From assembly GCA_021155085.1 (NCBI GenBank), contig JAJNQA010000027.1, forward strand, positions 30,058-94,057: 64,000 bases of DNA. The letters run 5' to 3'. Numbering within the stretch: the first letter of the stretch is position 1; each line of letters starts with the position of its first letter. This document shows positions 50,177 to 63,512 of this stretch, in pieces. Position numbers and translations under genes: made by a program. The notes beneath the pieces are model-generated. The model did no database searches. It was not told the DNA's origin and saw nothing but the letters and a program-made list of their open reading frames with translations. The DNA is from Heliomicrobium sp. Its GTDB lineage: Bacteria; Acidobacteriota; Blastocatellia; RBC074.

Positions 50177-50262
50177 GCCGGAGAAGCCCGATGGACGGGC
50201 GGCGGACTGTAAACCCGTTGTGGACGTGTGTCTGCAAGCAGGTTCGATTCCTGCCTCCGGCA
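50177..50262 (+). tRNA. tRNA-Tyr(GTA), type II (19-nt variable arm); non-canonical A8-A9
   Basis: acceptor GCCGGAG/CTCCGGC, loop CTGTAAA, T-arm GCAGG-TTCGATT-CCTGC, disc A; A31-C39 mismatch. Confidence 0.55.
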
Positions 50263-50267
50263 TTTCG

Positions 50268-50339
50268 GGGAGTATGTGGTAACTGGCAACCGGTCGGTCT
50301 CCAAAACCGATATTCCAGGTTCAAATCCTGGTACTCCTG
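50268..50339 (+). tRNA. tRNA-Trp(CCA)
   Basis: anticodon arm TCGGT-CTCCAAA-ACCGA, T-arm CCAGG-TTCAAAT-CCTGG, G1-U72; irregular D-arm. Confidence 0.6.
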
Positions 50340-50358
50340 TCAACGTTTGTAGCTATTT

Positions 50359-50446
50359 AGAGGCGTGGCGGAATTGGCAATCGCACTGGTCCGCTAAACC
50401 AGGGAGCTACTACAGTCTCGTGTGGGTTCGAGTCCCACCGCCTCTG
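50359..50446 (+). tRNA. tRNA-Ser(GCT), type II; C33 in anticodon loop
   Basis: acceptor AGAGGCG/CGCCTCT, CTGGT-CCGCTAA-ACCAG, long variable arm, T-arm GTGGG-TTCGAGT-CCCAC. Confidence 0.6.
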
Positions 50447-50465
50447 TCGAGTTATTTTTAGTTAC

Positions 50466-50550
50466 GGAGGGTTAGCCTAATTGGTAAGGCAGCAGTTTCG
50501 AAAACTGCCGTAGGATTGTACCTTTGAGGGTTCGAGTCCCTCACCCTCCT
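50466..50550 (+). tRNA. tRNA-Ser(CGA), type II; CCA encoded (50551-50553)
   Basis: acceptor GGAGGGT/ACCCTCC, GCAGT-TTCGAAA-ACTGC, T-arm GAGGG-TTCGAGT-CCCTC. Confidence 0.7.
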
Positions 50551-50600
50551 CCATTAAGTTCGGAGGTAATCAGCAACGCAATTAAGTTACAAATAGTTAT

Positions 50601-50684
50601 GGAGGGATGGCCGAATTGGCAAGGCAGTAGTTTTGAAAACTACCGGAGGTAACACTCTTCGGGGTTCGAGTCCCCGTCCCTTCG
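50601..50684 (+). tRNA. tRNA-Ser(TGA), type II
   Basis: acceptor GGAGGGA/TCCCTTC, GTAGT-TTTGAAA-ACTAC, T-arm CGGGG-TTCGAGT-CCCCG. Confidence 0.7.
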
Positions 50685-50715
50685 TCAGGTAGTAGTGTGT
50701 CTTGCAGGTACTTTG

Positions 50716-50791
50716 GCACTGGTAGCTCAGTTGGAATCAGAGCGCGGGCCTCCGAAGCCTGAGGTCGCGAGTTCGAGTCTCGCCCGGTGCA
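50716..50791 (+). tRNA. tRNA-Arg(CCG)
   Basis: acceptor GCACTGG/CCGGTGC, CGGGC-CTCCGAA-GCCTG, T-arm GCGAG-TTCGAGT-CTCGC. Confidence 0.7.
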
Positions 50792-50846
50792 TTTGACGTA
50801 AGTCGAACGTTATTTGAAAAGCCGGAAGTTATATTCAAATTACTTT

Positions 50847-50921
50847 GCGGGTGTGGCGCAAGCTGGTAGACGCGCAGCGCTAAGAACGCTGTTATTGGAG
50901 GTTCAAGTCCTCTCACCCGCA
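50847..50921 (+). tRNA. compact (type I, 75 nt) Leu-like tRNA with anticodon AAG
   Basis: acceptor GCGGGTG/CACCCGC, Leu-type D-arm GCG-CAAGCTGGTAGA-CGC, CAGCG-CTAAGAA-CGCTG, 5-nt variable loop, T-arm GGAGG-TTCAAGT-CCTCT, disc A. Confidence 0.5.
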
Positions 50922-50931
50922 TTTGGCGTTT

Positions 50932-51006
50932 GCAGGCATGGCGCAAATTGGCAGACGCGGCAGTCTCAAAAACTGCATTGTGAAGGTTCGAGTCCTTCTG
51001 CCTGCA
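50932..51006 (+). tRNA. compact (type I, 75 nt) Leu-like tRNA, anticodon CAA
   Basis: acceptor GCAGGCA/TGCCTGC, D-arm GCG-CAAATTGGCAGA-CGC, GCAGT-CTCAAAA-ACTGC, variable ATTGT, T-arm GAAGG-TTCGAGT-CCTTC, disc A. Confidence 0.55.
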
Positions 51007-51022
51007 TTATTGAAAGTTTTTT

Positions 51023-51098
51023 GTGGGTGTGGCGCAATTCAGGTAGACGCACCGGTCTCAGAAGCCGGTTGTTGGAGGTTCAAGTCCTCTCACCCACA
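51023..51098 (+). tRNA. compact (type I, 76 nt) Leu-like tRNA, anticodon CAG
   Basis: acceptor GTGGGTG/CACCCAC, D-arm GCG-CAATTCAGGTAGA-CGC, CCGGT-CTCAGAA-GCCGG, variable TTGTT, disc A. Confidence 0.55.
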
Positions 51099-51108
51099 TC
51101 AGATTTTC

Positions 51109-51181
51109 GTCGGCGTAGCTCAATTGGGAGAGCGCGAGTTTGCCAGGCTCGAGGTCGGGAGTTCAAACCTCCTCGCCGACT
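51109..51181 (+). tRNA. tRNA-Gly(GCC); CCA encoded (51182-51184)
   Basis: acceptor GTCGGCG/CGCCGAC, CGAGT-TTGCCAG-GCTCG, T-arm GGGAG-TTCAAAC-CTCCT, disc T. Confidence 0.7.
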
Positions 51182-51193
51182 CCATATTCTTTT

Positions 51194-51267
51194 GCACGCT
51201 TGGCCGAGTGGATTACAGGCGCAGGGCCGCAGCCCCTGTCAGGGCGGTTCGATTCCGTCAGCGTGCT
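51194..51267 (+). tRNA. Cys-like tRNA (anticodon GCA) with Ser-like D-arm, C33 and G37
   Basis: acceptor GCACGCT/AGCGTGC, disc T, CAGGG-CCGCAGC-CCCTG, T-arm GGCGG-TTCGATT-CCGTC. Confidence 0.45.
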
Positions 51268-51278
51268 TCATTTGATCT

Positions 51279-51354
51279 GCCGAAGTGGCGCAAACAGGCA
51301 GACGCGTGGAGCTTAAACCTCCGTCATTTGAGGGTTCGAGTCCCTCCTTCGGCA
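51279..51354 (+). tRNA. compact (type I, 76 nt) Leu-like tRNA, anticodon TAA
   Basis: acceptor GCCGAAG/CTTCGGC, D-arm GCG-CAAACAGGCAGA-CGC, TGGAG-CTTAAAC-CTCCG, short variable loop, T-arm GAGGG-TTCGAGT-CCCTC, disc A. Confidence 0.55.
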
Positions 51355-51365
51355 TTGTCAGTTTT

Positions 51366-51435
51366 TGCGGGTGGGCAAGTGCTCAGTTAGGTCTCATAAG
51401 CCTCGACTCGCTGGGAGCGTTACCCAGACCCGCAA
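51366..51435 (+). pseudogene. degenerate tRNA-like (CAT anticodon loop CTCATAA; non-canonical T-loop AGCGTTA)
   Basis: acceptor TGCGGGT/ACCCGCA pairs; D/T arms irregular. Confidence 0.3.
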
Positions 51436-51445
51436 TCAAAGTATG

Positions 51446-51521
51446 GGGCGCTGGGCAAGTCCGGTGAAGCCGTCGGTCTTTCAAGCTGAAGATCGTGGAT
51501 TCAAATCCCACACGACGCCCT
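51446..51521 (+). pseudogene. degenerate tRNA-like (TTC anticodon loop; T-stem A53-C61 mismatch and 2-nt insertion before 3' acceptor)
   Basis: GGGCGCTGGGCAAGT 5' end paralogous to 51366 copy; TCGGT-CTTTCAA-GCTGA. Confidence 0.3.
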
Positions 51522-51569
51522 ACTGTGTTTAGTTACATGATGTTACTCGGCAAGTAACTCGAAGTTACT

Positions 51570-51642
51570 GAGTCCGTGGCCTAATTGGCAAGGCAACAGC
51601 CTTTTAAGCTGTAAGATGTGGGTTCGATTCCCACCGGACTCA
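51570..51642 (+). tRNA. tRNA-Lys(TTT)
   Basis: acceptor GAGTCCG/CGGACTC, ACAGC-CTTTTAA-GCTGT, T-arm GTGGG-TTCGATT-CCCAC. Confidence 0.75.
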
Positions 51643-51660
51643 TTCGGATTTTTGAAGTTT

Positions 51661-51752
51661 GCTCCCGTAGCTTAAATGGAGAAAGCGGCGCGAAAATGAC
51701 GTGTCAGCATCGAGGGTCGCTGGAAATCCGGGTTCAAATCCCGGCTGGAGTC
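51661..51752 (+). tRNA. 92-nt tRNA-like gene with about 23-nt extra arm and non-canonical anticodon loop (AAAATGA); paralog of 51774 gene
   Basis: acceptor GCTCCCG/CTGGAGT (one C-U mismatch), D-arm GCTT-AAATGGAGA-AAGC, T-arm CCGGG-TTCAAAT-CCCGG. Confidence 0.35.
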
Positions 51753-51773
51753 TTTGTTTTTGGCTGCTGATTG

Positions 51774-51863
51774 GCTCCTGTAGCTCAACAGGCAGAGCGG
51801 CACGCTTATAACGTGTAAGCACCAGATCGGTGCGTGATCCGGGTTCGAATCCCGGCGGGAGCA
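51774..51863 (+). tRNA. 90-nt Ile-like tRNA, anticodon TAT, with about 22-nt stem-loop variable arm
   Basis: acceptor GCTCCTG/CGGGAGC, D-arm GCTC-AACAGGCA-GAGC, GCACG-CTTATAA-CGTGT, extra arm GCACC-agatc-GGTGC, T-arm CCGGG-TTCGAAT-CCCGG. Confidence 0.45.
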
Positions 51864-51874
51864 TCAGGATTTCT

Positions 51875-51949
51875 GGCGGGTGTAGCTCAGGCAGGCAGAG
51901 CGTCTGGCTGTGAACCAGAAAGCCGCCGGTTCAAATCCGGTCACTCGCC
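51875..51949 (+). tRNA. tRNA-His(GTG) with genome-encoded G-1
   Basis: G-1 + GCGGGTG/CACTCGC, disc C pairs G-1; TCTGG-CTGTGAA-CCAGA; T-arm GCCGG-TTCAAAT-CCGGT. Confidence 0.75.
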
Positions 51950-51967
51950 CTGATTTTTGAAGGTCTT

Positions 51968-52039
51968 TGGGATGTCGTCTAACTGGCAGGACGGTAGTCT
52001 TTGAAGCTATCTGTCGAGGTTCGAATCCTCGCATCCCGG
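51968..52039 (+). tRNA. tRNA-Gln(TTG), U1
   Basis: acceptor TGGGATG/CATCCCG, GTAGT-CTTTGAA-GCTAT, T-arm CGAGG-TTCGAAT-CCTCG. Confidence 0.65.
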
Positions 52040-52043
52040 TTTT

Positions 52044-52116
52044 GCACCTGAAGCTCAGTTGGCAGAGCACGCGGTTGATAACCGCGCGGTCGAAGGTTCG
52101 AGTCCTTCCGGGTGCA
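52044..52116 (+). tRNA. tRNA-Ile(GAT)
   Basis: acceptor GCACCTG/CGGGTGC, CGCGG-TTGATAA-CCGCG, T-arm GAAGG-TTCGAGT-CCTTC. Confidence 0.75.
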
Positions 52117-52126
52117 TCGAATTTGT

Positions 52127-52200
52127 GGGGCGTTGGTGTAGATGGTGAACACGCTCGGCTTTCAATCGAGAGATGGCCGGTTCGAGTCCGGTACGCCCTA
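52127..52200 (+). tRNA. tRNA-Glu(TTC)
   Basis: acceptor GGGGCGT/ACGCCCT, CTCGG-CTTTCAA-TCGAG, T-arm GCCGG-TTCGAGT-CCGGT. Confidence 0.7.
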
Positions 52201-52212
52201 CTCAAGTTTTAT

Positions 52213-52286
52213 GGGATCGTGGGCCAGTTGGAGTGGCTGCAGCCCTGTCAAGGCTGAGATCACGGGTTCGAGTCCCGTCGGTCCCG
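52213..52286 (+). tRNA. tRNA-Asp(GTC)
   Basis: acceptor GGGATCG/CGGTCCC, CAGCC-CTGTCAA-GGCTG, T-arm ACGGG-TTCGAGT-CCCGT. Confidence 0.75.
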
Positions 52287-52302
52287 TTTAGGATTTGAAA
52301 AT

Positions 52303-52375
52303 GGATCGGTAACTCAATGGTCAGAGTGCCTGCCTCTTAAGCAGGAAGTTGTGGGTTCAAGTCCCACCCGATCCA
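52303..52375 (+). tRNA. tRNA-Lys(CTT); CCA encoded (52376-52378)
   Basis: acceptor GGATCGG/CCGATCC, CCTGC-CTCTTAA-GCAGG, T-arm GTGGG-TTCAAGT-CCCAC. Confidence 0.75.
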
Positions 52376-52387
52376 CCAAAAAGTTTT

Positions 52388-52460
52388 TACAGGGTAGCTC
52401 AGTTGGCAGAGCGCCGGTCTGTTAAACCGGTCCGCGCGGGTTCGAGTCCCGCCCCTGTAG
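52388..52460 (+). tRNA. tRNA-Asn(GTT)
   Basis: acceptor TACAGGG/CCCTGTA, CCGGT-CTGTTAA-ACCGG, T-arm GCGGG-TTCGAGT-CCCGC. Confidence 0.75.
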
Positions 52461-52465
52461 CTTTT

Positions 52466-52542
52466 CAGAGTGTAGTTGCGGTTTGCGCAGAGCGCACGGC
52501 CCGGGCCCGTGAGGTCGCTCACTTCGAATCCTGCCACTCTGA
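52466..52542 (+). pseudogene. degenerate tRNA-like (acceptor CAGAGTG/CACTCTG pairs; anticodon hairpin CACGG-CCCGGGC-CCGTG; T-stem does not pair)
   Basis: TTCGAAT T-loop present but flanks unpaired. Confidence 0.3.
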
Positions 52543-52617
52543 TTTTAGCGGCGAATGCTGATGGAACTACATCTTGGAAAATGAACGTTTCATCAAATTT
52601 TTGTCGCCGCTTTTTTC

Positions 52618-52690
52618 GTGAGCGAAGCGCTAATGGCAGCGTGCTGGTCTTCCAAACCGGAGGTAGCGGGTTCGATCCCCGCCGCTCACT
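52618..52690 (+). tRNA. tRNA-Gly(TCC)
   Basis: acceptor GTGAGCG/CGCTCAC, CTGGT-CTTCCAA-ACCGG, T-arm GCGGG-TTCGATC-CCCGC; preceded by 8-bp-stem hairpin + T6 (52551-52616). Confidence 0.75.
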
Positions 52691-52695
52691 TTTTT

Positions 52696-52767
52696 GCTGG
52701 TGTAGCTCAACGGATGAGCCGCCGTCTCGTAAGCGGCAGGATATGGGTTCGAATCCCATCGCCAGCT
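52696..52767 (+). tRNA. tRNA-Thr(CGT)
   Basis: acceptor GCTGGTG/CGCCAGC, GCCGT-CTCGTAA-GCGGC, T-arm ATGGG-TTCGAAT-CCCAT. Confidence 0.7.
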
Positions 52768-52772
52768 TTGAT

Positions 52773-52844
52773 TGGGAGATCGTCTAATTGGCAGGATGGC
52801 AGATTCTGACTCTGTTGATTGTGGTTCGAATCCACATCTCCCAG
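52773..52844 (+). tRNA. tRNA-Gln(CTG), U1
   Basis: acceptor TGGGAGA/TCTCCCA, GCAGA-TTCTGAC-TCTGT, T-arm TGTGG-TTCGAAT-CCACA. Confidence 0.7.
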
Positions 52845-52850
52845 TTTTTT

Positions 52851-52923
52851 AGGAACGTAGCTCAGTGGCTAGAGCATTGGTCTTACAAACCAGAGGCCGT
52901 GGGTTCGAGTCCCACCGTTCCTA
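52851..52923 (+). tRNA. tRNA-Val(TAC)
   Basis: acceptor AGGAACG/CGTTCCT, TTGGT-CTTACAA-ACCAG, T-arm GTGGG-TTCGAGT-CCCAC; followed by 15-bp x2 tandem TTGCCCAATGCTTAT (52926-52955). Confidence 0.75.
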
Positions 52924-52965
52924 TTTTGCCCAATGCTTATTTGCCCAATGCTTATTTGAAAGCCT

Positions 52966-53038
52966 GGGATCGTAGCCAAACTGGAAAGGCGCCAGTCTTG
53001 CAAACTGGAAATTGTGGGTTCGAGCCCCACCGGTTCCA
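52966..53038 (+). tRNA. tRNA-Ala(TGC) with G3-U70 identity pair
   Basis: acceptor GGGATCG/CGGTTCC, CCAGT-CTTGCAA-ACTGG, T-arm GTGGG-TTCGAGC-CCCAC. Confidence 0.75.
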
Positions 53039-53048
53039 TTCTGATTTT

Positions 53049-53120
53049 CTGGGTGTGGGGCAGTGGCTGCCCACTTGCCTTGGGAGCAAGCCGACGCAGG
53101 TTCGAGTCCTGCCACCCAGA
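53049..53120 (+). tRNA. tRNA-Pro(TGG)
   Basis: acceptor CTGGGTG/CACCCAG, CTTGC-CTTGGGA-GCAAG, T-arm GCAGG-TTCGAGT-CCTGC. Confidence 0.75.
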
Positions 53121-53126
53121 CTTTAT

Positions 53127-53203
53127 GTTCGTGTAGCTCAGTGGAAATTTAGAGCGCTGGTCTACGAAACCAGAGGCCGAAGGTTCGAATCCTTCCACGA
53201 ACA
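53127..53203 (+). tRNA. tRNA-Arg(ACG)
   Basis: acceptor GTTCGTG/CACGAAC, CTGGT-CTACGAA-ACCAG, T-arm GAAGG-TTCGAAT-CCTTC. Confidence 0.75.
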
Positions 53204-53211
53204 TCAAATTT

Positions 53212-53283
53212 GGTTGGTTAGCACAACTGGCAGTGCGCTCGGCTGAAGCCCGAACGGACGGGGTTCGAGTCCTCGACCAACCA
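53212..53283 (+). tRNA. tRNA-Phe(GAA)
   Basis: acceptor GGTTGGT/ACCAACC, CTCGG-CTGAAGC-CCGAA, T-arm CGGGG-TTCGAGT-CCTCG; followed by 7-bp-stem hairpin 53290-53318. Confidence 0.7.
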
Positions 53284-53324
53284 TCAAATCAAATCTCCGA
53301 TTTCAAATTGGAGATTCGAGATGG

Positions 53325-53399
53325 GGTGATGTAGCTCAGTGGAATCAGAGCGACTGCCTCCTAAGCAGTAGGCCGTGAGTTCAAATCTCACCATCGCCA
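53325..53399 (+). tRNA. tRNA-Arg(CCT)
   Basis: acceptor GGTGATG/CATCGCC, ACTGC-CTCCTAA-GCAGT, T-arm GTGAG-TTCAAAT-CTCAC. Confidence 0.75.
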
Positions 53400-53407
53400 C
53401 TTCAAAT

Positions 53408-53481
53408 GTCCGCATAGCTCAGTTGGAGGCAGCACCCGCTCGGTACGCGGGAGGACGCCGGTTCGATTCCGGCTGCGGGCT
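53408..53481 (+). tRNA. tRNA-Thr(GGT); apparent C33 and 3-bp D-stem
   Basis: acceptor GTCCGCA/TGCGGGC, CCCGC-TCGGTAC-GCGGG, T-arm GCCGG-TTCGATT-CCGGC. Confidence 0.55.
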
Positions 53482-53497
53482 TAACCTGATAATCTAC

Positions 53498-53573
53498 GGG
53501 TCTGTCGTCTAATTGGAATCAAGGCGTCCGGCTTCTAACCGGGATGATGCAGGTTCGAGTCCTGCCAGGCCCT
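53498..53573 (+). tRNA. tRNA-Arg(TCT)
   Basis: acceptor GGGTCTG/CAGGCCC, TCCGG-CTTCTAA-CCGGG, T-arm GCAGG-TTCGAGT-CCTGC. Confidence 0.7.
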
Positions 53574-53597
53574 TCTTGAGCAATCAACGGAGTTGTT

Positions 53598-54155
53598 ATG
53601 GTAATCAGCAGAAAAGTCTTGCTACTCAACGCTTCTTACGAACCGCTCAGTGTGGTGACTGCGCCGAAGGCGTTGACGCTAGTTTTCAGGCACGTGGCCG
53701 AAGTGCTGGAGGCGGATCAAGGACACGTGCTGCGTTCGCCACGGTTTGTTTTCCAGGTGCCGTCGGTGATCCGGTTGACGCAATACATCAATATCCGCTC
53801 GCGGCAAAACCGCGTGGCCAATCGCCATCGGATTCTGGCGCGTGACCATTACCGCTGCCAGTATTGCGGCAAGCGTGGAAGTGCCTTTGAACTGACGCTT
53901 GATCACATCCTACCCAGATCACGTGGCGGTCGAACAGTGGCCGAAAACCTGGTTGCGTCTTGCCAGGCTTGTAACAACCGCAAAGGTGACCGGACGCCGG
54001 AAGAAGCCCGGATGCCTTTGCTGACTAATCCGGCGGCGTTGTTTTATGGATTGGAGCGGGTGGAGTTGCGGCAGGCGGCCGCGAATCGTCCGGAATGGAG
54101 AAAATATCTTTTCCTCGAACACGCGGAAGAGGAACTGGCGGTAATCTCCGCCTGA
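53598..54155 (+). CDS. HNH endonuclease
   Basis: ACGGAG SD; HNH motif DHYRCQYCGKRGSAFELTLDHILPRSRGG...NLVASCQACNNRKGDRT. Confidence 0.8.
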   Translation: MVISRKVLLLNASYEPLSVVTAPKALTLVFRHVAEVLEADQGHVLRSPRFVFQVPSVIRLTQYINIRSRQNRVANRHRILARDHYRCQYCGKRGSAFELTLDHILPRSRGGRTVAENLVASCQACNNRKGDRTPEEARMPLLTNPAALFYGLERVELRQAAANRPEWRKYLFLEHAEEELAVISA

Positions 54156-54315
54156 GGTTCCCAGTCGTCGCTGGCGCTGATTCGAGCAATGGAGTCTGTG
54201 TCGTTCTGCTGCCCGAATCGGCGCTGGCGGGCGAATTTTTTGAACTACATTTTTTGTCTGTCTTGACAGTTTCGCGAACCATCTGCTACTTTCCCGGCTT
54301 CGTTATTAGACATAC

Positions 54316-54390
<75 letters not shown>

Positions 54391-54744: not shown

Positions 54745-56751
54745 GTGAGCGAAATACAAAATCAATCCAATCAAGCATCGTCGCAAGCAGCAGGGGCTCA
54801 AGCTGTTGTTGGGGCTTCAGCGCTGGAACTTTTGAAGCAACAGGATCGCGAAAGCGCAAAGAAAGCGCTTGCCGCACGTCTTTTCCGCAATGGTGTTCAG
54901 CAGGAAGAGCCTGTTGATTTGAGCTATCAAATTGGTGAAGGTGAACGGGTGGAACCCGTCACGCCAGAATCGCCTGAAGCTCTGGAAGTTTACCGCCATT
55001 CGACAGCGCATTTGCTGGCGGCGGCGGTTTTGGATCTGTTTCCGGGGGCGAAACTCGGTATTGGGCCGGCGTTACTCGACGATCCAAAGGGCGGGTTCTA
55101 TTACGACTTTGTGCGTGAAGACGGTGGGCGATTCACGCCGGAAGATTTACCGAAGATCGAAAAGAAAATGCGCGATCTGATGAAGCGCAATCTCGAATAT
55201 CGGCGAATTCAGATGCCGAAGGCGGAAGCCGAAAAGAAATTTGCCGAGATGGCCGAGCCGCTCAAGTGCGAGTTGATCAAGGAAAAAGCGGGCGAAATCG
55301 TCAGTTGCTACACGATTGAAGGCACGCCCTTCGTGGATTTTTGTCTGGGGCCGCATATTCCTTCGACGGGCAAGATCAAGGCGATCAAGCTGCTTTCGAT
55401 TGCCGGCGCGCACTGGAAAGGCGACGAAAAGCGCGAGCAGATGCAGCGAATTTACGGCACGTCCTTCTTTTCGCAGGAGGAACTGGACGCCTGGATCAAG
55501 CAAAAGGAAGAGGCCGAAAAGCGTGATCATCGTCGCCTGGGGCAGGAGCTTGATCTGTTCAGCTTCAGCGACGCGATTGGGCCCGGCTTGGTGCTCTGGC
55601 ATCCGAACGGTGCGCTGATTCGCAAAGTCATCGAGCAGTTCCTGAACGACAAGCTTTATCAAAGCGGATACAGCTTCGTGAACACGCCGCACGTCACGCA
55701 GTCGGAGCTTTTCAGAATCTCCGGCCATTTGGAGAACTACCAGGAAGGCCTGTATCCGGCGATGCACACGGGCGACAAGGGCGAAAAGGAAGATGTAGAG
55801 TATCGGATGAAGCCGATGAACTGCCCGTTCCATATCCAGATTTTCAAAGCCCGGCAGCGGTCGTATCGTGACTTGCCGCAGCGTTACGCCGAATACGGGA
55901 TGGTTTACCGCTACGAGCGTTCGGGGGTTACGCACGGGTTGATGCGCGCGCGCGGTTTCACGCAGGACGATGCGCATCTGTTCTGCACACCGGAGCAATT
56001 GGTTCACGAAGTGCTCGGTTGCCTGGAACTGGTGGATTATGTTTTCAAGGCGTTCGGTTTTGAGTACAAGGCCGAATTATCCGTTCGCCACGCAACGGAT
56101 CATGAAAAATATTTGGGTTCGGACGAAGTTTGGACGCTGGCCGAAAAGGCATTGACGGACGCGCTCAACGAATACGGCTTGCCTTACGTTCGAATGGAAG
56201 ATGAAGCCGCGTTTTACGGGCCGAAAATTGACTTCAAGGTCGTGGATGCGATCAAGCGGACCTGGCAGCTTTCGACGATTCAGGTGGATTTCAATTTGCC
56301 GCAGCGGTTCGGCATTGAATATACGGGCGCGGACAACAAACCGCATCAGCCGATTATGGTGCATCGGGCGATTCTGGGTTCGTTCGAGCGGTTCTTTGGG
56401 ATTTTGATTGAGCATTATGCGGGGGCTTTCCCGGTCTGGATGGCGCCGACACAAGCCATCGTGCTGCCGATTTCGGATCGTTTCAATGACAAGGCGATGG
56501 AAGTCGAGCGCGAATTGCAGGCAGCCGGTCATCGCATCCAGGCTGATCTGCGCAGCGAAAAAATCGGCGCGAAGATTCGGGATGCTCAGTTGAAGAAGAT
56601 TCCTTTTATGCTGGTGCTTGGCGAGCGTGAGGCGGAGGCCGGGTTGGTTTCAGTCCGCGACCGCATCAAAGGCGACACCGGCGCGGTTCCAGTGGCGGAA
56701 TTCAGCGCGCGATTGAAAGAGTTCGTCAGCACGCGCGCATTGCAGGCTTAG
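54745..56751 (+). CDS. thrS: threonyl-tRNA synthetase
   Basis: class II aaRS motifs, TGS/N2 editing domain ([12 protein letters not shown]), anticodon-binding C-term. Confidence 0.9.
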
Positions 56752-58161: not shown

Positions 58162-59187
58162 ATGTCAGATCGCATTACACAACTGCGCGAAGATTTCGAC
58201 CGCGAATTGGCGGCGGTTGCCAGTGACACCGAAGCGGGTTCGCTGCGCGACCGTTGGGTAGGGCGCAAAAGCGGCTTGCTCACCGCCGAAATGAAGACGC
58301 TCGGCAAGCTTTCGCCCGAAGAGCGCAAGACGGCAGGCGCGAAACTCAACGAATTGAAGAATTCCGTCGAAGTGGCGATTGACGGGCTACTCGGCAGTTT
58401 CGCCGCCAAACGCGAAGCCGAACAGCTTGCCAAGGAACGAATTGACGTGACGCTGCCCGGTCGGCGCATTCAAGCCGGTCACCTGCATCCGATCACGCTG
58501 CTGCGGCAGAAGATCGAAGACATCTTCGTTTCGATGGGCTACGAGATCGAAGACGGGCCGGAAATCGAAACGCATTTCTACAACTTCGATGCGCTGAACA
58601 TTCCGGAAAACCATCCGGCGCGCAGTCCGCAAGACACGTTTTACCTGACCGAACATCTGGCGCTGCGTTCGCAGACTTCGACCATGCAGATTCACGCGAT
58701 GCAGAAACGGCAGCCGCCGTTGCGCGTCGCCGCGCCTGGCCGCGTTTTCCGGCGCGATACGCCTGACGCGACGCACAACCCGATGTTCTATCAAGTGGAA
58801 GGCCTGTTGATTGATCGCGGCATCACGCTCGGAGACCTGAAAGGCACGGTTGAAGAATTCGTCCGCCGCCTGTTCGGACTGGAAACGCGGACGCGCTTCC
58901 GCCCGTCGTATTTCCCTTTCGTCGAACCAGGCGCGGAAATTGACTACACCTGCTTCAAATGCGGCGGCGGTGGCTGCCGTGTTTGCAAAGGTTCCGGCTG
59001 GATCGAAATGGGCGGTTCGGGCATGGTGCATCCGAATGTGCTGCGCGTCGTCGGAATTGATCCAGAAGAATTCTCAGGCTTCGCGTTTGGCCTGGGCTTG
59101 GATCGGTTGTGCGCGTTGATGTATGGCTTGGACGATATTCGGCTTCTGTACGAAAATGACGTGCGGTTTTTAGAACAGTTTAGTTAG
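58162..59187 (+). CDS. pheS: phenylalanyl-tRNA synthetase alpha subunit
   Basis: class II motifs ([31 protein letters not shown]). Confidence 0.9.
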
Positions 59188-59210
59188 TCTGAGTTTCATT
59201 GGAGGGCAAA

Positions 59211-59450
59211 ATGGAACAACAAACACTGACGATTTCGCAGGCTCTTTATCGCAGGCTGGAAACCGAGGCACAGCTTCAAAGCTTGAGTATTGAACAGTTG
59301 ATTGAACAGTGGGAACACCAACTTTCAGAGATCAAGCGACGGCAGGAAGCAGGGCGTGTGATCAAAGAAACTTTCAAGAAAATGAAAGCCAAATACGGAC
59401 TCATGCCGGACAGTGCCGAACTAATTCGCGAGGATCGGGACAGCAGATGA
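59211..59450 (+). CDS. ribbon-helix-helix type II antitoxin (VapB-like)
   Basis: MEQQTLTISQALYRRLETEAQLQSLSIEQLIEQ RHH pattern; ATGA overlap with PIN gene. Confidence 0.55.
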   Translation: MEQQTLTISQALYRRLETEAQLQSLSIEQLIEQWEHQLSEIKRRQEAGRVIKETFKKMKAKYGLMPDSAELIREDRDSR

Positions 59451-59878
59451 CAAATCTGGTGATAGACAGTGGCGTTGCGGTGAAATGGTTTGTGAACGAG
59501 CCAAACTCCGCGGAAGCTGAACGCATTTTCGATGAGTATCTGGCCAGCGAGATTTTCTTATTGGCTCCGGACTTTATCTATGCTGAGTTCGGCAACATCA
59601 TCTGGAAAAAGCAGACGCTTCAGGGATTCAATCCTACAGACGCGGCCAAGGTTATTGATGACTTTCGCACGCGGGTCACAATTGCTCTGACTTCAACGGC
59701 AGATCTGCTTGAAGATGCCTACCAATTGGCTGTCACTCACAGGCGAACCGTTTACGACATGCTTTACCTGGCCTTGAGTCTTCGCGAAGGCTGCCAATTC
59801 GTTACCGCCGATGATCGTCTGGTGAACGCAATCGGCAGTCAATTCCCAAACATCGTTCGATTGGCCGATTGGCCGTAA
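59447..59878 (+). CDS. PIN-domain toxin (VapC-like)
   Basis: MTNLVIDSGVAVKWF...PIN acidic residues; start overlaps antitoxin stop. Confidence 0.7.
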   Translation: MTNLVIDSGVAVKWFVNEPNSAEAERIFDEYLASEIFLLAPDFIYAEFGNIIWKKQTLQGFNPTDAAKVIDDFRTRVTIALTSTADLLEDAYQLAVTHRRTVYDMLYLALSLREGCQFVTADDRLVNAIGSQFPNIVRLADWP

Positions 59879-59890
59879 GAAGCGAGGGAG

Positions 59891-60694
59891 ATGAAACGGA
59901 AAGTCTCGGAATTCGCCTACGGTTTTGTTCTGACACACGAACTGGTGCGCACTTATGGCTATTTGCCGACCGATGTGCCGCTGCCCGGAATGGAAAAGAA
60001 ACGTAAGAAGGCGAAAGCTGGAGACGATGCCGGCGCTTTGCCGCCCAAACAGTATGGTTATCCGCTCTTCCTGCAATTCAAAGCCAGCGAATTTATGAAG
60101 CGCAAGAACGCGGGCGAATCGAAGCTGGTGGGTTTGCCGTATTTCCGGTTTCCGATCTATCGCAAGACGCAGTCGAATCAGCAGCCGTTGTTGTGCGAGA
60201 TCGAAAAGCGCGGTTACCCGGTTTATTACGCAACGCCGAAGATGCACGAAGCGGTCAATTTGAATGGAGCTTTCTTCGACGAACGCGTTGTCGCCCATTC
60301 GCTGTTTGTCAGTCCGCTGGAAATCGGAGAATTGCCGGACAATCTAAATCATCGTGTGGTTTTCAGCGGCACGACGAAAGAAGTTTATTTCTGTCCGAAG
60401 CCACGTCAGCTCAAACGTGCGATTCACGGCGAAGACTTTGCCGAAAAGATCCAGGAAGTTCTTTCCACGCGAGAGCCGGAACTGCTCGATGATGATTTCT
60501 TTCAGCGGCTGGCGAGCGATTTGGTCTCGCTGGTTTCGCCGAACCGCAGAATCTTCGATGAATTATCGCGCGGGAAATTTGAGATGACTGCGGCGACGTT
60601 TGCTAACTATCTGGCACGGACTTTGTTCGATTGCGAATTACTGATCATTCCGGCGAAGGCTGTGGATGAAGACGGAACGACTTTGCACTTATGA
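59891..60694 (+). CDS. hypothetical protein (267 aa) inserted between pheS and pheT, stop overlaps pheT start (ATGA)
   Basis: no recognisable motif. Confidence 0.5.
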
Positions 60695-62745
60695 AAATCA
60701 GCTACAACTGGCTTAAAGAATTTGTGGACGTTGATCTCCCGCCGCGCGATTTGGCGGAGAAGCTGACGATGGTCGGACTGGCGGTGGATGGGGTCGAAGA
60801 GCATGGTGAAGATTTTGTGCTCGACATTGATCTGACCTCGAACCGGCCGGACTGTTTGTCTCATCTCGGCGTTGCGCGCGAAGCAGCGGCGATCACTAGA
60901 AATCCATTGCGAATGCCGAAAGTTGAGTTTGCCGAATCGCAGGCTAAGGTTGGCGAATTGACCTCGGTGGAGATTTTGAATCCGGACCTTTGTCCGCGCT
61001 ACACGGCGCGAATTATCAAAGGCGTCAAGATCGGTCCTTCGCCTGAGTGGTTGGTCAAACGGCTGGAGGTGATGGGACAGCGCAGCGTCAACAACGTCGC
61101 CGACATCACCAATTACGTCATGCTGGAGATGGGGCAGCCGCTGCACGCCTTCGATCTGGCGATGCTGAACTCGCAGCGCATCATTGTCCGTGCGGCGCGT
61201 GACGGCGAAAAGATGACGACGCTCGATGGCGAAGAGCGCGAGCTGACTTCCAGGATGCTGGTCATCGCCGATGCCGAATGCGCGGTGGCGCTCGGCGGAA
61301 TCAAGGGCGGGGAGGACTCGGGCATTACGGACACGACGGTGGATGTGCTGCTCGAAGCGGCGTATTTCACTCCAGCGCAGATTCGCGCAACTTCAAAAAC
61401 ATTGGGTTTGAGCACCGAAGCTTCGTACCGTTTCGAGCGAGGGACGGATCCCGAAATCGTGCCGGTGGCTTCAGCGCGGGCGGCGGCGATGATCGCCGAA
61501 ATCGCGGGCGGGGAGGTGCTAGACGGAATCGTGGACGTTTATCCGAAGCAGGCGGAGCGCCGCCGAATCACGATGCGCCGCGCGCGGTATTCGCAACTGA
61601 CCGGTTTGCAGATTGAGCTTGGCGAAGCTGAAGCGATTCTGCGCGGACTTGGTTTTGAGGTTGAGGCCGATATTGAAAATGATTCGCTGCACACGAACGC
61701 GCCAAGCTGGCGGATTGATATTTCGATTGAAGAAGATTTGATCGAAGAAGTCGCCCGCATCGCCGGGTATGACAACCTGAAAACAACGCTGCCGGGCAGC
61801 GCTGGCGCTGGCGCTTATCTGCCGGGCGAAGAAGGCCGCCGCGCCGCACGCCGCGCGCTGACTTCGTTGGGCTACACCGAAGCAGTCAGCTTCAGCTTCG
61901 TCAACGCCGAAGCGGACGCGGTCGTCAGCGATGCGCCGGATTCCGCGCGGTTGCTGCTGCGAAATCCGATTGATGAAACGCAGTCGCACATGCGGACGAC
62001 GCTGCTGGGTGGGTTGCTGAAAGCGCTCGAGCATAACTTCAACCATTCTTCGCGCAACGTGCGGCTGTTCGAAATCGGCAAGTGCTTTCTTGACGCGGGC
62101 GAAGATCGGCCCCGGGAGACGGAACACCTGGCGTTTGTCGCCACCGGCGCGCGCAATGAATTTGACTGGCAGACGGCCAACGCGAAAATTGATTTCTTCG
62201 ATGTCAAAGGCGCGCTTGAATCCATTGGCGCAGCATTGGGTTTGCCGCCAATGGAATTCACGCCGGTTGAAACCAGAACGTCTTTGCATCCCGGACGCGC
62301 CGCGCTAATATCACTGGCCGGAAATCGAGTAGGACAAATCGGGCAGCTTCATCCCCGCGTCGCTGCAAATTACAAATTCAAACAAGCTGTCTTCGTTGCC
62401 GAATTGGATTTCGGGGCTTTGCTGAATGCCGACCGCGCAGGCGTTCGCTATCAACCGCTGCCGAAATATCCGGCGGTGGTTCGCGATCTGGCGCTGCTGA
62501 TCGAAACCAGCGTGCCGCTTGCCGCCATTGAACGCGCTGTCCACGCCTTGAGTATTTCGGAACTGGCAGGCATCAGACTGTTCGATCTGTATTCGGGCAA
62601 GGAATTGCCGGCTGGCAAGCATTCGATTGCGCTTTCGCTGCGTTATCGCGCGGCGGATCGCACGCTGACGGACGAGGAAATCAGCGTGATGCACTCGCAG
62701 ATTGTGAAACAATTGACCGAAGAGTTTTCGGCTGAAATTCGATGA
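60691..62745 (+). CDS. pheT: phenylalanyl-tRNA synthetase beta subunit
   Basis: [16 protein letters not shown] tRNA-binding N-term, B3/4, B5, FDX-ACB domains. Confidence 0.9.
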
Positions 62746-62764: not shown

Positions 62765-63040
62765 ATGGCTGCACCGGGGCTGGAAAAATTCGAGAACTTG
62801 TTGGACAAAATCCATCGTTCAGTCGCCATCTGCAATTCTCTCAGACATGAGAAAGAACAGCTCGAAGGTGACCTTCAAAAATTAACGCTAGATTTGGCGG
62901 CGGAAAAGACGGATAACGAGAAGCTGAAATCTCAAATCGAGTTCTTGCTCGAGGAACGGGAAGCCATGAAATTGAAGGTTGAAGGCATTCTCGATGCCAT
63001 CACAATGCTGGAACTCGAAGCCGATTCGGTCAAGAAATGA
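62765..63040 (+). CDS. small coiled-coil protein (ZapB-like)
   Basis: heptad-rich 91-aa ORF between pheT and zapA. Confidence 0.4.
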   Translation: MAAPGLEKFENLLDKIHRSVAICNSLRHEKEQLEGDLQKLTLDLAAEKTDNEKLKSQIEFLLEEREAMKLKVEGILDAITMLELEADSVKK

Positions 63041-63209
63041 GCGGCTGAAGTTTAAGCAGGTCTGCAAAAACAAATTGATATAGACAAGATTCACTGGATT
63101 TTGGCAGGTGTCTTCTCTGCTTTTGTCCATCCTGTTAGTACTCTGATTAATCCTGTCCAGGCTTGGTTTATTTGCCGAGGAAGTAATTGGCTTCCCAGGT
63201 GGAGAAGAT

Positions 63210-63512
63210 ATGGAAATCCCGTCCCAAACCGTGAACGTCAAAATCTTCAACCAGACCTACACCATTCGCGCGAACGACGGCGATGCGGAGCGAACACAGC
63301 GGCTGGCGGCGCTGGTGGATCAGCGGATGCGCGAAATTGCGCAGGGCGCGCTAACCTCCGATTCGCTGAAGCTGGCCATTCTGGCCGCAATTCTGATCGC
63401 CGACGATCTGGAGAAAGCGAACGCCAGATATGACGAATTGAACCAGGAATTGATTGCGCGCAGCGCCGAATGCGCCGAACTGCTGGATCAAATGCTCAAA
63501 GGCGGAAAATAA
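63210..63512 (+). CDS. zapA: cell division protein ZapA
   Basis: [37 protein letters not shown] ZapA fold signature, pheT-linked as in many bacteria. Confidence 0.75.

Follow-up and report, generated by a model that had tools for sequence, protein, structure and literature searches.

A pheS-pheT accessory slot in Blastocatellia holds a conserved nuclease-like gene, probably no longer catalytic, and a mobile VapBC-like cassette

The PD-(D/E)xK nucleases include the homing endonuclease I-Ssp6803I, the archaeal Hjc resolvases and RecU. Nuclease-fold proteins can also outlive their catalytic activity: Sen15 and Sen54, subunits of the tRNA-splicing endonuclease, are dead members of such a fold that are kept as binding or structural proteins. 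In Pseudomonas aeruginosa, the core defence hotspot cDHS1 lies in the neighbourhood of pheS, pheT, rplT and ihfA, together with a MerR-family regulator and a proline tRNA (PMC10250203). Here we describe a locus from the Blastocatellia, a lineage of soil bacteria, that recalls each of these systems. In the 64,000-nucleotide stretch of contig JAJNQA010000027.1 that we analyzed (hereafter the window), pheS and pheT, which encode the alpha and beta subunits of phenylalanyl-tRNA synthetase (PheRS), are separated by three co-oriented, close-packed genes: an antitoxin, a PIN toxin and an open reading frame (ORF) of 267 amino acids (aa) that we call orfX. Searches of the literature found no precedent for genes between pheS and pheT, or for toxin-antitoxin (TA) modules in aminoacyl-tRNA synthetase operons. 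We consider it probable that the DNA between pheS and pheT in this lineage has long served as a slot for accessory genes inside the operon, with two layers, a domesticated, non-cutting, nucleic-acid-binding orfX of conflict-system origin and a mobile VapBC passenger. orfX belongs to an undescribed family within the PD-(D/E)xK fold; one branch of this family has been domesticated within an essential operon, and most of its members there have lost the presumably catalytic segment. As a TA system, the antitoxin-PIN pair is an ordinary member of the VapBC family, and its location is its sole unusual feature.

We compared the slot over 45 loci, namely 40 loci from a scan of one genome per GTDB species, four metagenome loci picked for the most divergent alleles, and the window. 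orfX was found between pheS and pheT in 40/40 GTDB species loci, within the same thrS-infC-rpmI-rplT-pheS...pheT-zapB-like-zapA backbone, and likewise in the four divergent metagenome loci and the window (45/45). The full order of the slot over these loci was pheS, a 185-aa secreted protein, the antitoxin-PIN pair, a POTRA protein of ~440 aa, orfX, then either a POTRA protein of ~427 aa or a BrnT-BrnA pair, and pheT; orfX was the sole slot gene that was always present. The search for orfX homologues recovered 127, with identities of 53-95%; every one came from a metagenome-assembled genome of Blastocatellia or Acidobacteriota. Ratios of nonsynonymous to synonymous divergence (dN/dS; Nei-Gojobori, NG86) ranged from 0.03 to 0.21 for orfX, from 0.08 to 0.25 for pheT and from 0.01 to 0.16 for pheS. 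Overall, orfX is a real gene under purifying selection as strong as that on pheT. An earlier note on this DNA had proposed a 1.5-kb insertion between pheS and pheT, and had suggested comparing the spacing in relatives, where conservation of all three genes would speak against it. The outcome of this comparison was divided, as only orfX was conserved: the TA pair does behave as an insertion, whereas orfX, present in 44/44 related loci and the window, is a fixture of the lineage. The alternative raised in the same note, that the ORF is chance or antisense noise, is contradicted by the 127 homologues and by the low dN/dS in its own frame. The only damaged copy that we saw was in L037 (6001-6570), where the homologue aligns to residue 192/267 only within an ORF of 244 aa; this copy may have a frameshifted C-terminus or be a pseudogene, or the assembly may be at fault here.

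The relatives of orfX extend far beyond this lineage. A profile search of 1.84 billion cluster representatives (50% clusters) returned 1468 clusters with E≤1e-3, of which 938 reached E≤1e-10. Most were full-length matches to proteins of 250-270 aa; the Blastocatellia group accounts for only 1-2 of these clusters. Across the family, near-invariant positions were S6-E7, E17, P-S/T-L-x-E38-E-G-x-x-G-G44-Y-D46, L-Q59-F-K61, R83, S92-x-Q94-H95, Y110, P113 and H151. At the sequence level this amounts to a helix-1 Glu followed by a D...QxK pattern, as in PD-(D/E)xK enzymes. The AlphaFold2 model of the window protein was confident (pLDDT 84.8, pTM 0.84), with weak stretches at residues 39-50 (pLDDT <50) and in the C-terminal tail, and a restriction-endonuclease-like alpha/beta core fold is predicted; a check by AlphaFold had been called for in the earlier note. 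A Foldseek search against the PDB found nothing, so that any relationship to known folds is remote, and sequence-profile searches of the PDB gave nothing meaningful for the family. No match was found in Pfam, NCBIfam, PADLOC or PHROGs for orfX and 12 wider-family members. With the PD-(D/E)xK nucleases named above, the wider family shares the helix-1 Glu and the D...Q-x-K residues. It differs from them in having no sequence-level match to a Pfam family or a PDB chain and in an extra helical C-terminal half of ~100 residues, and the window protein differs further in that it lacks the conserved Asp-bearing segment.

Outside the Blastocatellia, members of the family were solitary genes in variable regions, such as defence islands, a prophage end, the vicinity of transposition genes, and plasmids. 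We observed them at the end of a P2-like prophage in Vibrio fluvialis, beside the TnsA-like, TniB and TniQ genes of a Tn7-like element in Collimonas, beside a type IIG restriction-modification enzyme in Luteimonas, beside a Gabija-like OLD-TOPRIM/UvrD pair and a type I restriction-modification system, directly 3' of a TIR-domain protein in Luteolibacter, and on eight plasmids, one of them archaeal, where the annotation was always 'hypothetical protein'. The association with defence islands comes from this context, as PADLOC v2, searched at E≤1 with the window proteins and 12 wider-family members, gave no match. Neighbours differed at every wider-family site examined, and no recurring partner gene was found among them. 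A 431-aa neighbour in Collimonas was considered as a conserved partner and rejected, since it showed no similarity to the Blastocatellia POTRA proteins. Identity with Tn7 TnsA, which would call for both similarity to the catalytic N-terminal domain of TnsA and a place as first gene of a tnsABC/tniQ operon, was likewise discarded, as this combination was not observed. A tblastn search of 50,697 GenBank phage records found no family match, and in IMG/VR the family occurred at one locus in 2.9 million contigs. This rarity in phage collections indicates that the family is not typically phage-borne, the Vibrio prophage notwithstanding.

We then examined the presumably catalytic segment in the pheST-linked clade. 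Residues E38, G44 and D46 were 100% conserved in 239 wider-family sequences and eight Blastocatellia sequences, and were lost in 111 others, which we refer to as loop alleles. The 119 Blastocatellia sequences thus comprise 111 loop alleles, including that of the window, and eight motif-bearing alleles, which also sit between pheS and pheT. All 40 genome loci and the window lacked the E38/G44/D46 segment. In its place stands a loop of 14-44 residues that is often rich in K, R, E and D and is predicted to be disordered. In the window orfX, this degenerate segment covers residues 21-55 (59951-60055), where the family-invariant P-S/T-L-x-E-E-G-x-x-G-G-G-Y-D segment was. The catalytic acidic residue or residues and the (D/E/Q)-x-K element were found together in the wider family and in the eight Blastocatellia alleles, and not in the window protein; an Asp that aligns by chance in the window loop was not conserved among the 111 loop alleles. 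The remainder of the protein was retained: loop alleles kept E7, E17, QxK, R83, S92, Q94 and H151 at 88-100%, and the window orfX keeps E7, E17 and Q62-x-K64, with H95 changed to Q. Within the clade, the N-terminal helix, core and C-terminal regions were 77-91% identical, compared with only 47% for residues 171-205. Relative to the family, constraint was inverted, with 36% identity in the loop region of the clade vs 51% family-wide, and 79% vs 25% over the C-terminal 50 residues. In a neighbour-joining tree computed with the loop masked and not bootstrapped, motif alleles were both basal (P0118, P0120) and in a nested clade (P0073 and relatives), a placement that implies at least three losses, or allele exchange. 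As in the dead nuclease-fold proteins, presumably catalytic residues were lost here while the rest of the protein stayed under strong purifying selection. Unlike Sen15 and Sen54, orfX is not known to have a partner, and active-looking and dead-looking alleles coexist at one locus within one lineage and are exchanged.

Exchange was seen in two pairs of near-identical backbones. The motif allele of L046 differed from L021, L024 and L026 by dS of 2.2-2.3 in orfX, compared with 0.27-0.35 in pheS and pheT; between L046 and L024, nucleotide identity was ~90% over pheS, both POTRA genes and pheT, and fell to 53-77% only inside orfX. For the motif allele of L050 compared with L014, pheT gave a dN of 0.045 and a dS of 0.56, and BrnA a dS of 0.37, whereas orfX gave a dN of 0.40 with saturated dS. 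These results show that recombination has placed old, deeply divergent orfX alleles into conserved backbones. Homing could confine divergence to orfX in two near-identical backbone pairs, and so, equally well, could ordinary allelic recombination; the pattern is that expected of conflict-related loci and not of a co-evolving enzyme subunit. In a further pair, L012 and L014, the whole island (RHH-PIN-orfX-BrnTA; RHH, ribbon-helix-helix) was near-identical, with dS of 0.02-0.14, vs a dS of 0.43 in pheS, which suggests a recent transfer of the entire island by recombination.

In contrast to orfX, the TA pair was present in few loci. The VapBC-like pair was intact in 7/45 (the window, L001, L012, L014, L039, L046 and L048) and decayed in 2/45, with antitoxin and the last 20 PIN codons left in L010 and PIN split across frames in L017. 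Between L046 and L024 it is a clean indel with flanks ~90% identical. The antitoxin (78-79 aa) and the PIN protein (142-144 aa) were kept paired at every site found, including other genomic sites. The TA pair is a mobile, decay-prone passenger, separate from orfX: its patchy distribution, its decay, the indel and its occurrence at other junctions argue against one insertion together with orfX. The same cassette (78 + 142 aa) was also seen at other housekeeping junctions, upstream of fusA and between murJ and yjeF (L059 4765-5429; L061 4765-5429), and its placement between co-oriented housekeeping genes suggests that it tends to settle within housekeeping transcription units.

The identity of the two proteins was then considered. 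The toxin (59447-59878; 143 aa) matched Pfam PIN at E 1.8e-10 (41.9 bits vs a cut-off of 23.6), and the acidic residues D7, E47, D104 and D122, invariant in 18 homologues, are present in the window protein. Its VapC subfamily comprised 521 homologues, one of them cyanobacterial, and several are named VapC family toxin by NCBI. By analogy with this family, the PIN protein is probably an RNase held in check by the antitoxin. For the antitoxin, the earlier note had assumed a start at TTG 59199; the most likely start is ATG 59211, giving 79 aa (59211-59450), because a GGAGGG Shine-Dalgarno sequence (59201-59206) precedes it by 4 nucleotides (nt), every homologue in the alignment begins there, and the same sequence, called independently, also yields a gene of 79 aa. 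Its assignment as an RHH antitoxin is plausible, with a probable ribbon-helix-helix N-terminus, but all model matches fell below threshold (PHROG Arc-like, E 0.014; NCBIfam VapB, E 0.008; RHH-type antitoxin MazE7, E 0.1). Some of its homologues matched RHH_1 (E 0.0097) or FitA-like RHH (E 0.004), again weakly, and a C-terminal tail, G-x-MPDS-x-ELIREDR, was conserved. The pair thus shares with VapBC type II systems a PIN domain above the Pfam cut-off with its four acidic residues, a small upstream gene with a 4-nt overlap and a conserved C-terminal tail, and a patchy, mobile distribution with toxin-first decay (the orphan antitoxin of L010). It differs in that its antitoxin matches the RHH and VapB models only below threshold, and in that the cassette lies inside an essential operon with no room for a promoter of its own, which makes classical autoregulation by the antitoxin doubtful.

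Other slot genes were recorded alongside these two. POTRA proteins of ~430-440 aa, as one or two paralogues, flank orfX in L046 (4666-5988 and 6772-8055), L003, L013, L018-L026, L038, L048 and L050. By inspection, several of them start with a hydrophobic, signal-peptide-like N-terminus, and the genes evolved more quickly (dN/dS 0.2-0.47) than those around them. At least one POTRA gene was present at each of the four motif-bearing orfX loci (4/4). A second TA family, BrnT/BrnA, occupies the orfX-pheT spacer in L003, L010, L012, L013, L014, L017, L050 and L051. It too shows decay, with BrnT frameshifted in L012 and a BrnA fragment alone left in L013.

The two-layer reading runs as follows. orfX, a member of a large PD-(D/E)xK-like family, is fixed between pheS and pheT, and the window protein would no longer cut nucleic acid, being a binding-only derivative of a conflict nuclease from a defence system or mobile element. 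It would be made constitutively, since ribosomes and RNA polymerase must traverse orfX to express pheT. The second layer would be the VapBC cassette, in which, from what is known of the family, a PIN RNase is presumably held inactive by a labile antitoxin and would arrest translation if the antitoxin supply failed. Judging from their spacing, all three genes would be transcribed by read-through from the thrS-infC-rpmI-rplT-pheS unit, and translation of pheT may be coupled to that of orfX through their ATGA overlap. Several points weigh against this account. Co-transcription and coupling are suggested by spacing alone. In the predicted model of a motif-bearing protein, the E/G/D segment itself was of low confidence (pLDDT ~51-55), so that its catalytic role is deduced from invariance and the D...QxK pattern and not from geometry. 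The replacement loops are rich in acidic residues and may supply a substitute metal ligand. Defence genes normally turn over; a gene kept in every locus while PheT diverges to as little as 63% identity would be an unusual one among them and would better fit a housekeeping role. Finally, the neighbour-joining trees were not bootstrapped, and chimerism of metagenome-assembled genomes could inflate allele discordance, although two independent cases with sharp boundaries argue against chimerism. A bolder version, to which we give little credence, is that orfX represents a new type of conflict locus, a nuclease-derived gene locked in an essential aminoacyl-tRNA synthetase operon, with active-looking and dead-looking alleles as an ancient polymorphism. 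The dead form would then be a site-occupying or subunit-poisoning protector against mobile-element nucleases, or a sensor tied to PheRS expression, and the family of ~1500 clusters would be an undescribed single-gene family of defence or mobile-element nucleases.

Since orfX sits in a synthetase operon, we considered whether it had been exapted to assist PheRS or tRNA-Phe metabolism as a housekeeping accessory factor. It might bind tRNA or aid assembly in trans, for instance, with its gene placed between those of the two subunits to keep their stoichiometry. Its presence in 45/45 loci under constraint like that of pheT, its tight ATGA coupling to pheT, and the clade-specific gain of C-terminal constraint, which suggests a new interaction surface, would all suit such a role. 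So would the polybasic stretch in many loop alleles (K+R 0.21), which recalls the appendages, rich in lysine, through which eukaryotic aminoacyl-tRNA synthetases bind tRNA. This loop is however not conserved, some loops being short and acidic or Gly-rich, and the wider family has no translation-related context. The composition of PheT is, at first sight, a further point in favour. E. coli-type PheT carries a B2 domain (tRNA_bind, OB-fold); in the 684-aa PheT of the window, the B1 region passes straight to B3_4 with no tRNA_bind match in Pfam, and B2 was missing in all related loci. Among 241 million metagenome records scanned for a pheS end next to a pheT start, one orfX-less contig emerged, L064, in which pheS directly abuts a 685-aa pheT that also lacks B2. 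Its PheS was 76-82% and its PheT 62-69% identical to those of clade members, which places it at the edge of, or inside, the diversity of the clade. A B2-less PheRS therefore does not require orfX, and compensation by orfX for the missing B2 is ruled out: orfX co-occurs with B2-less PheT, yet an orfX-less relative exists. Together with the swapping of deeply divergent orfX alleles between near-identical backbones, this leaves an accessory function rather unlikely.

The empty site of L064, the position of orfX between two essential genes, and the motif allele that stands in place of a loop allele within a backbone of 90% identity, where only the gene itself diverges, also evoke a selfish element. 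Free-standing homing endonuclease genes in phage genomes sit between essential genes, and motif alleles of orfX could likewise re-invade by cleavage and repair while loop alleles degenerate, in keeping with the repeated or patchy loss of the motif on the gene tree. A homing cycle nevertheless predicts sporadic occupancy, with neutral decay and loss of fixed copies. We observed instead 45/45 occupied sites, a single empty one retrieved by the targeted adjacency scan, and loop alleles that were not decaying: among the full-length ORFs read from contigs spanning the gene, every one could be aligned from end to end apart from that of L037, with its truncated or divergent C-terminus, and the alleles had a dN/dS of ~0.09 and, outside the loop, 77-91% identity in the N-terminal helix, core and C-terminus. 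Moreover, the wider family occupies many unrelated, non-conserved sites, as is typical of cargo genes, and we judge homing to be unlikely. The arrival of the RHH, PIN and 267-aa genes together, in one recent addiction or defence insertion that stabilises or rides the locus, is very improbable. The three genes are contiguous and co-oriented, their GC content at third codon positions (GC3) falls below the values of pheS and pheT, and the fullest islands in relatives carry both VapBC and orfX; but orfX occurs without the TA pair in 36/45 loci, the pair is an indel independent of orfX and the cassette occurs without orfX at other sites, and, over the clade as a whole, orfX diverges roughly in step with PheS and PheT. 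An addiction module, which the earlier note had raised as a possibility, would also be superfluous for stabilising a locus that is essential anyway. The same position in every locus and the ATGA overlap with pheT might finally be explained if orfX were a translated spacer that brings ribosomes to the pheT start, its product being functionless. This is scarcely credible, as a dN/dS of 0.03-0.21 and many invariant residues indicate selection at the amino-acid level, and BrnTA or POTRA genes part orfX from pheT in many relatives, so that the coupling is not conserved.

The two-layer slot reading has consequences beyond this locus. The family of at least 1468 clusters at 50% identity spans phyla and is unannotated, and its nuclease-like fold and contexts make it a candidate for defence-system screens. 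orfX offers a natural case of domestication, in which the presumably catalytic segment was lost repeatedly or by allele exchange while the rest of the protein was kept as tightly as the synthetase itself, and it lends itself to tests of how a nuclease turns into a non-catalytic protein and of why the two forms have both survived. TA cassettes (VapBC, BrnTA) and further accessory genes are also shown to lodge within an essential aminoacyl-tRNA synthetase operon, which extends the idea of the Pseudomonas core defence hotspot. The two have in common that variable, conflict-type cassettes sit at a conserved rplT-pheST neighbourhood, where VapBC, BrnTA and others come and go in the present lineage. 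They differ in that cassettes between pheS and pheT are not reported for cDHS1, whereas here they lie inside the operon, and in that one cassette here, orfX, is fixed and not variable (PMC10250203).

All genes of the locus lie on the + strand of the window, in the order thrS (54745-56751), infC, rpmI, rplT, pheS, antitoxin, PIN, orfX, pheT, zapB-like and zapA. The slot is bounded upstream by pheS (58162-59187; Pfam tRNA-synt_2d, E 1.6e-99, and Phe_tRNA-synt_N), which was 80-95% identical across the 44 related loci, and downstream by pheT (60691-62745; Pfam B3_4, B5, tRNA_synthFbeta and FDX-ACB). orfX (59891-60694), with its restriction-endonuclease-like (PD-(D/E)xK-like) N-terminal core and helical C-terminal part as predicted, is preceded by a GAGGGAG Shine-Dalgarno sequence (59884-59890). 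Its stop (TGA) overlaps the pheT start (ATG) in an ATGA at 60691-60694, an arrangement typical of translational coupling, and a second ATGA joins the antitoxin stop to the PIN start at 59447-59450. The gaps from pheS to antitoxin, PIN, orfX and pheT were 23, -4, 12 and -4 nt, the first being counted from the pheS stop to TTG 59199 and becoming 35 nt with the antitoxin start at ATG 59211. GC3 was 0.51 and 0.57 for antitoxin and PIN, 0.60 for orfX, within the range of neighbouring housekeeping genes, and 0.66-0.68 for pheS and pheT. Much of what the earlier note had read from the sequence was accurate, namely the three genes with both ATGA overlaps, the PIN toxin with an overlapping small antitoxin, and an uncharacterised ORF whose stop overlaps the start of pheT. 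Its suggestion of hitchhiking on pheST transcription agrees with the close packing: promoter-like and terminator-like sites were counted at or below the level of shuffled sequence and none lay between pheS and pheT, and internal promoters or terminators were dropped as candidates for this reason. Its interpretation as a whole is partly supported. A 201-aa antisense ORF at 59693-60298 was treated as mechanical, as selection acts on the + frame.

Downstream of pheT, a zapB-like ORF (91 aa, coiled-coil) and zapA (62765-63512) were present in nearly all related loci, so that the entire thrS-infC-rpmI-rplT-pheS-...-pheT-zapB-like-zapA order is a conserved backbone of the lineage. Several contigs bear the title 'uncultured Heliomicrobium sp.' or 'Heliobacteriaceae' (Firmicutes) and encode a PheS 85-94% identical to that of the window: L004, L007, L008, L013, L014, L017, L022, L025, L035 and L039. 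Their gene content matches Blastocatellia, and the titles are probably taxonomic mislabels. Upstream of thrS, 34 tRNA genes lie on the + strand at 50177-54387, 33 of them within 3.4 kb and tRNA-Val at 54316. The array includes tRNA-Phe(GAA) and the unusual anticodons Ile AAT and TAT and Leu AAG, and no tRNA-Met was called among its 34 genes. It thereby adjoins a synthetase operon that also holds a PIN toxin, which may be tRNA-cleaving.

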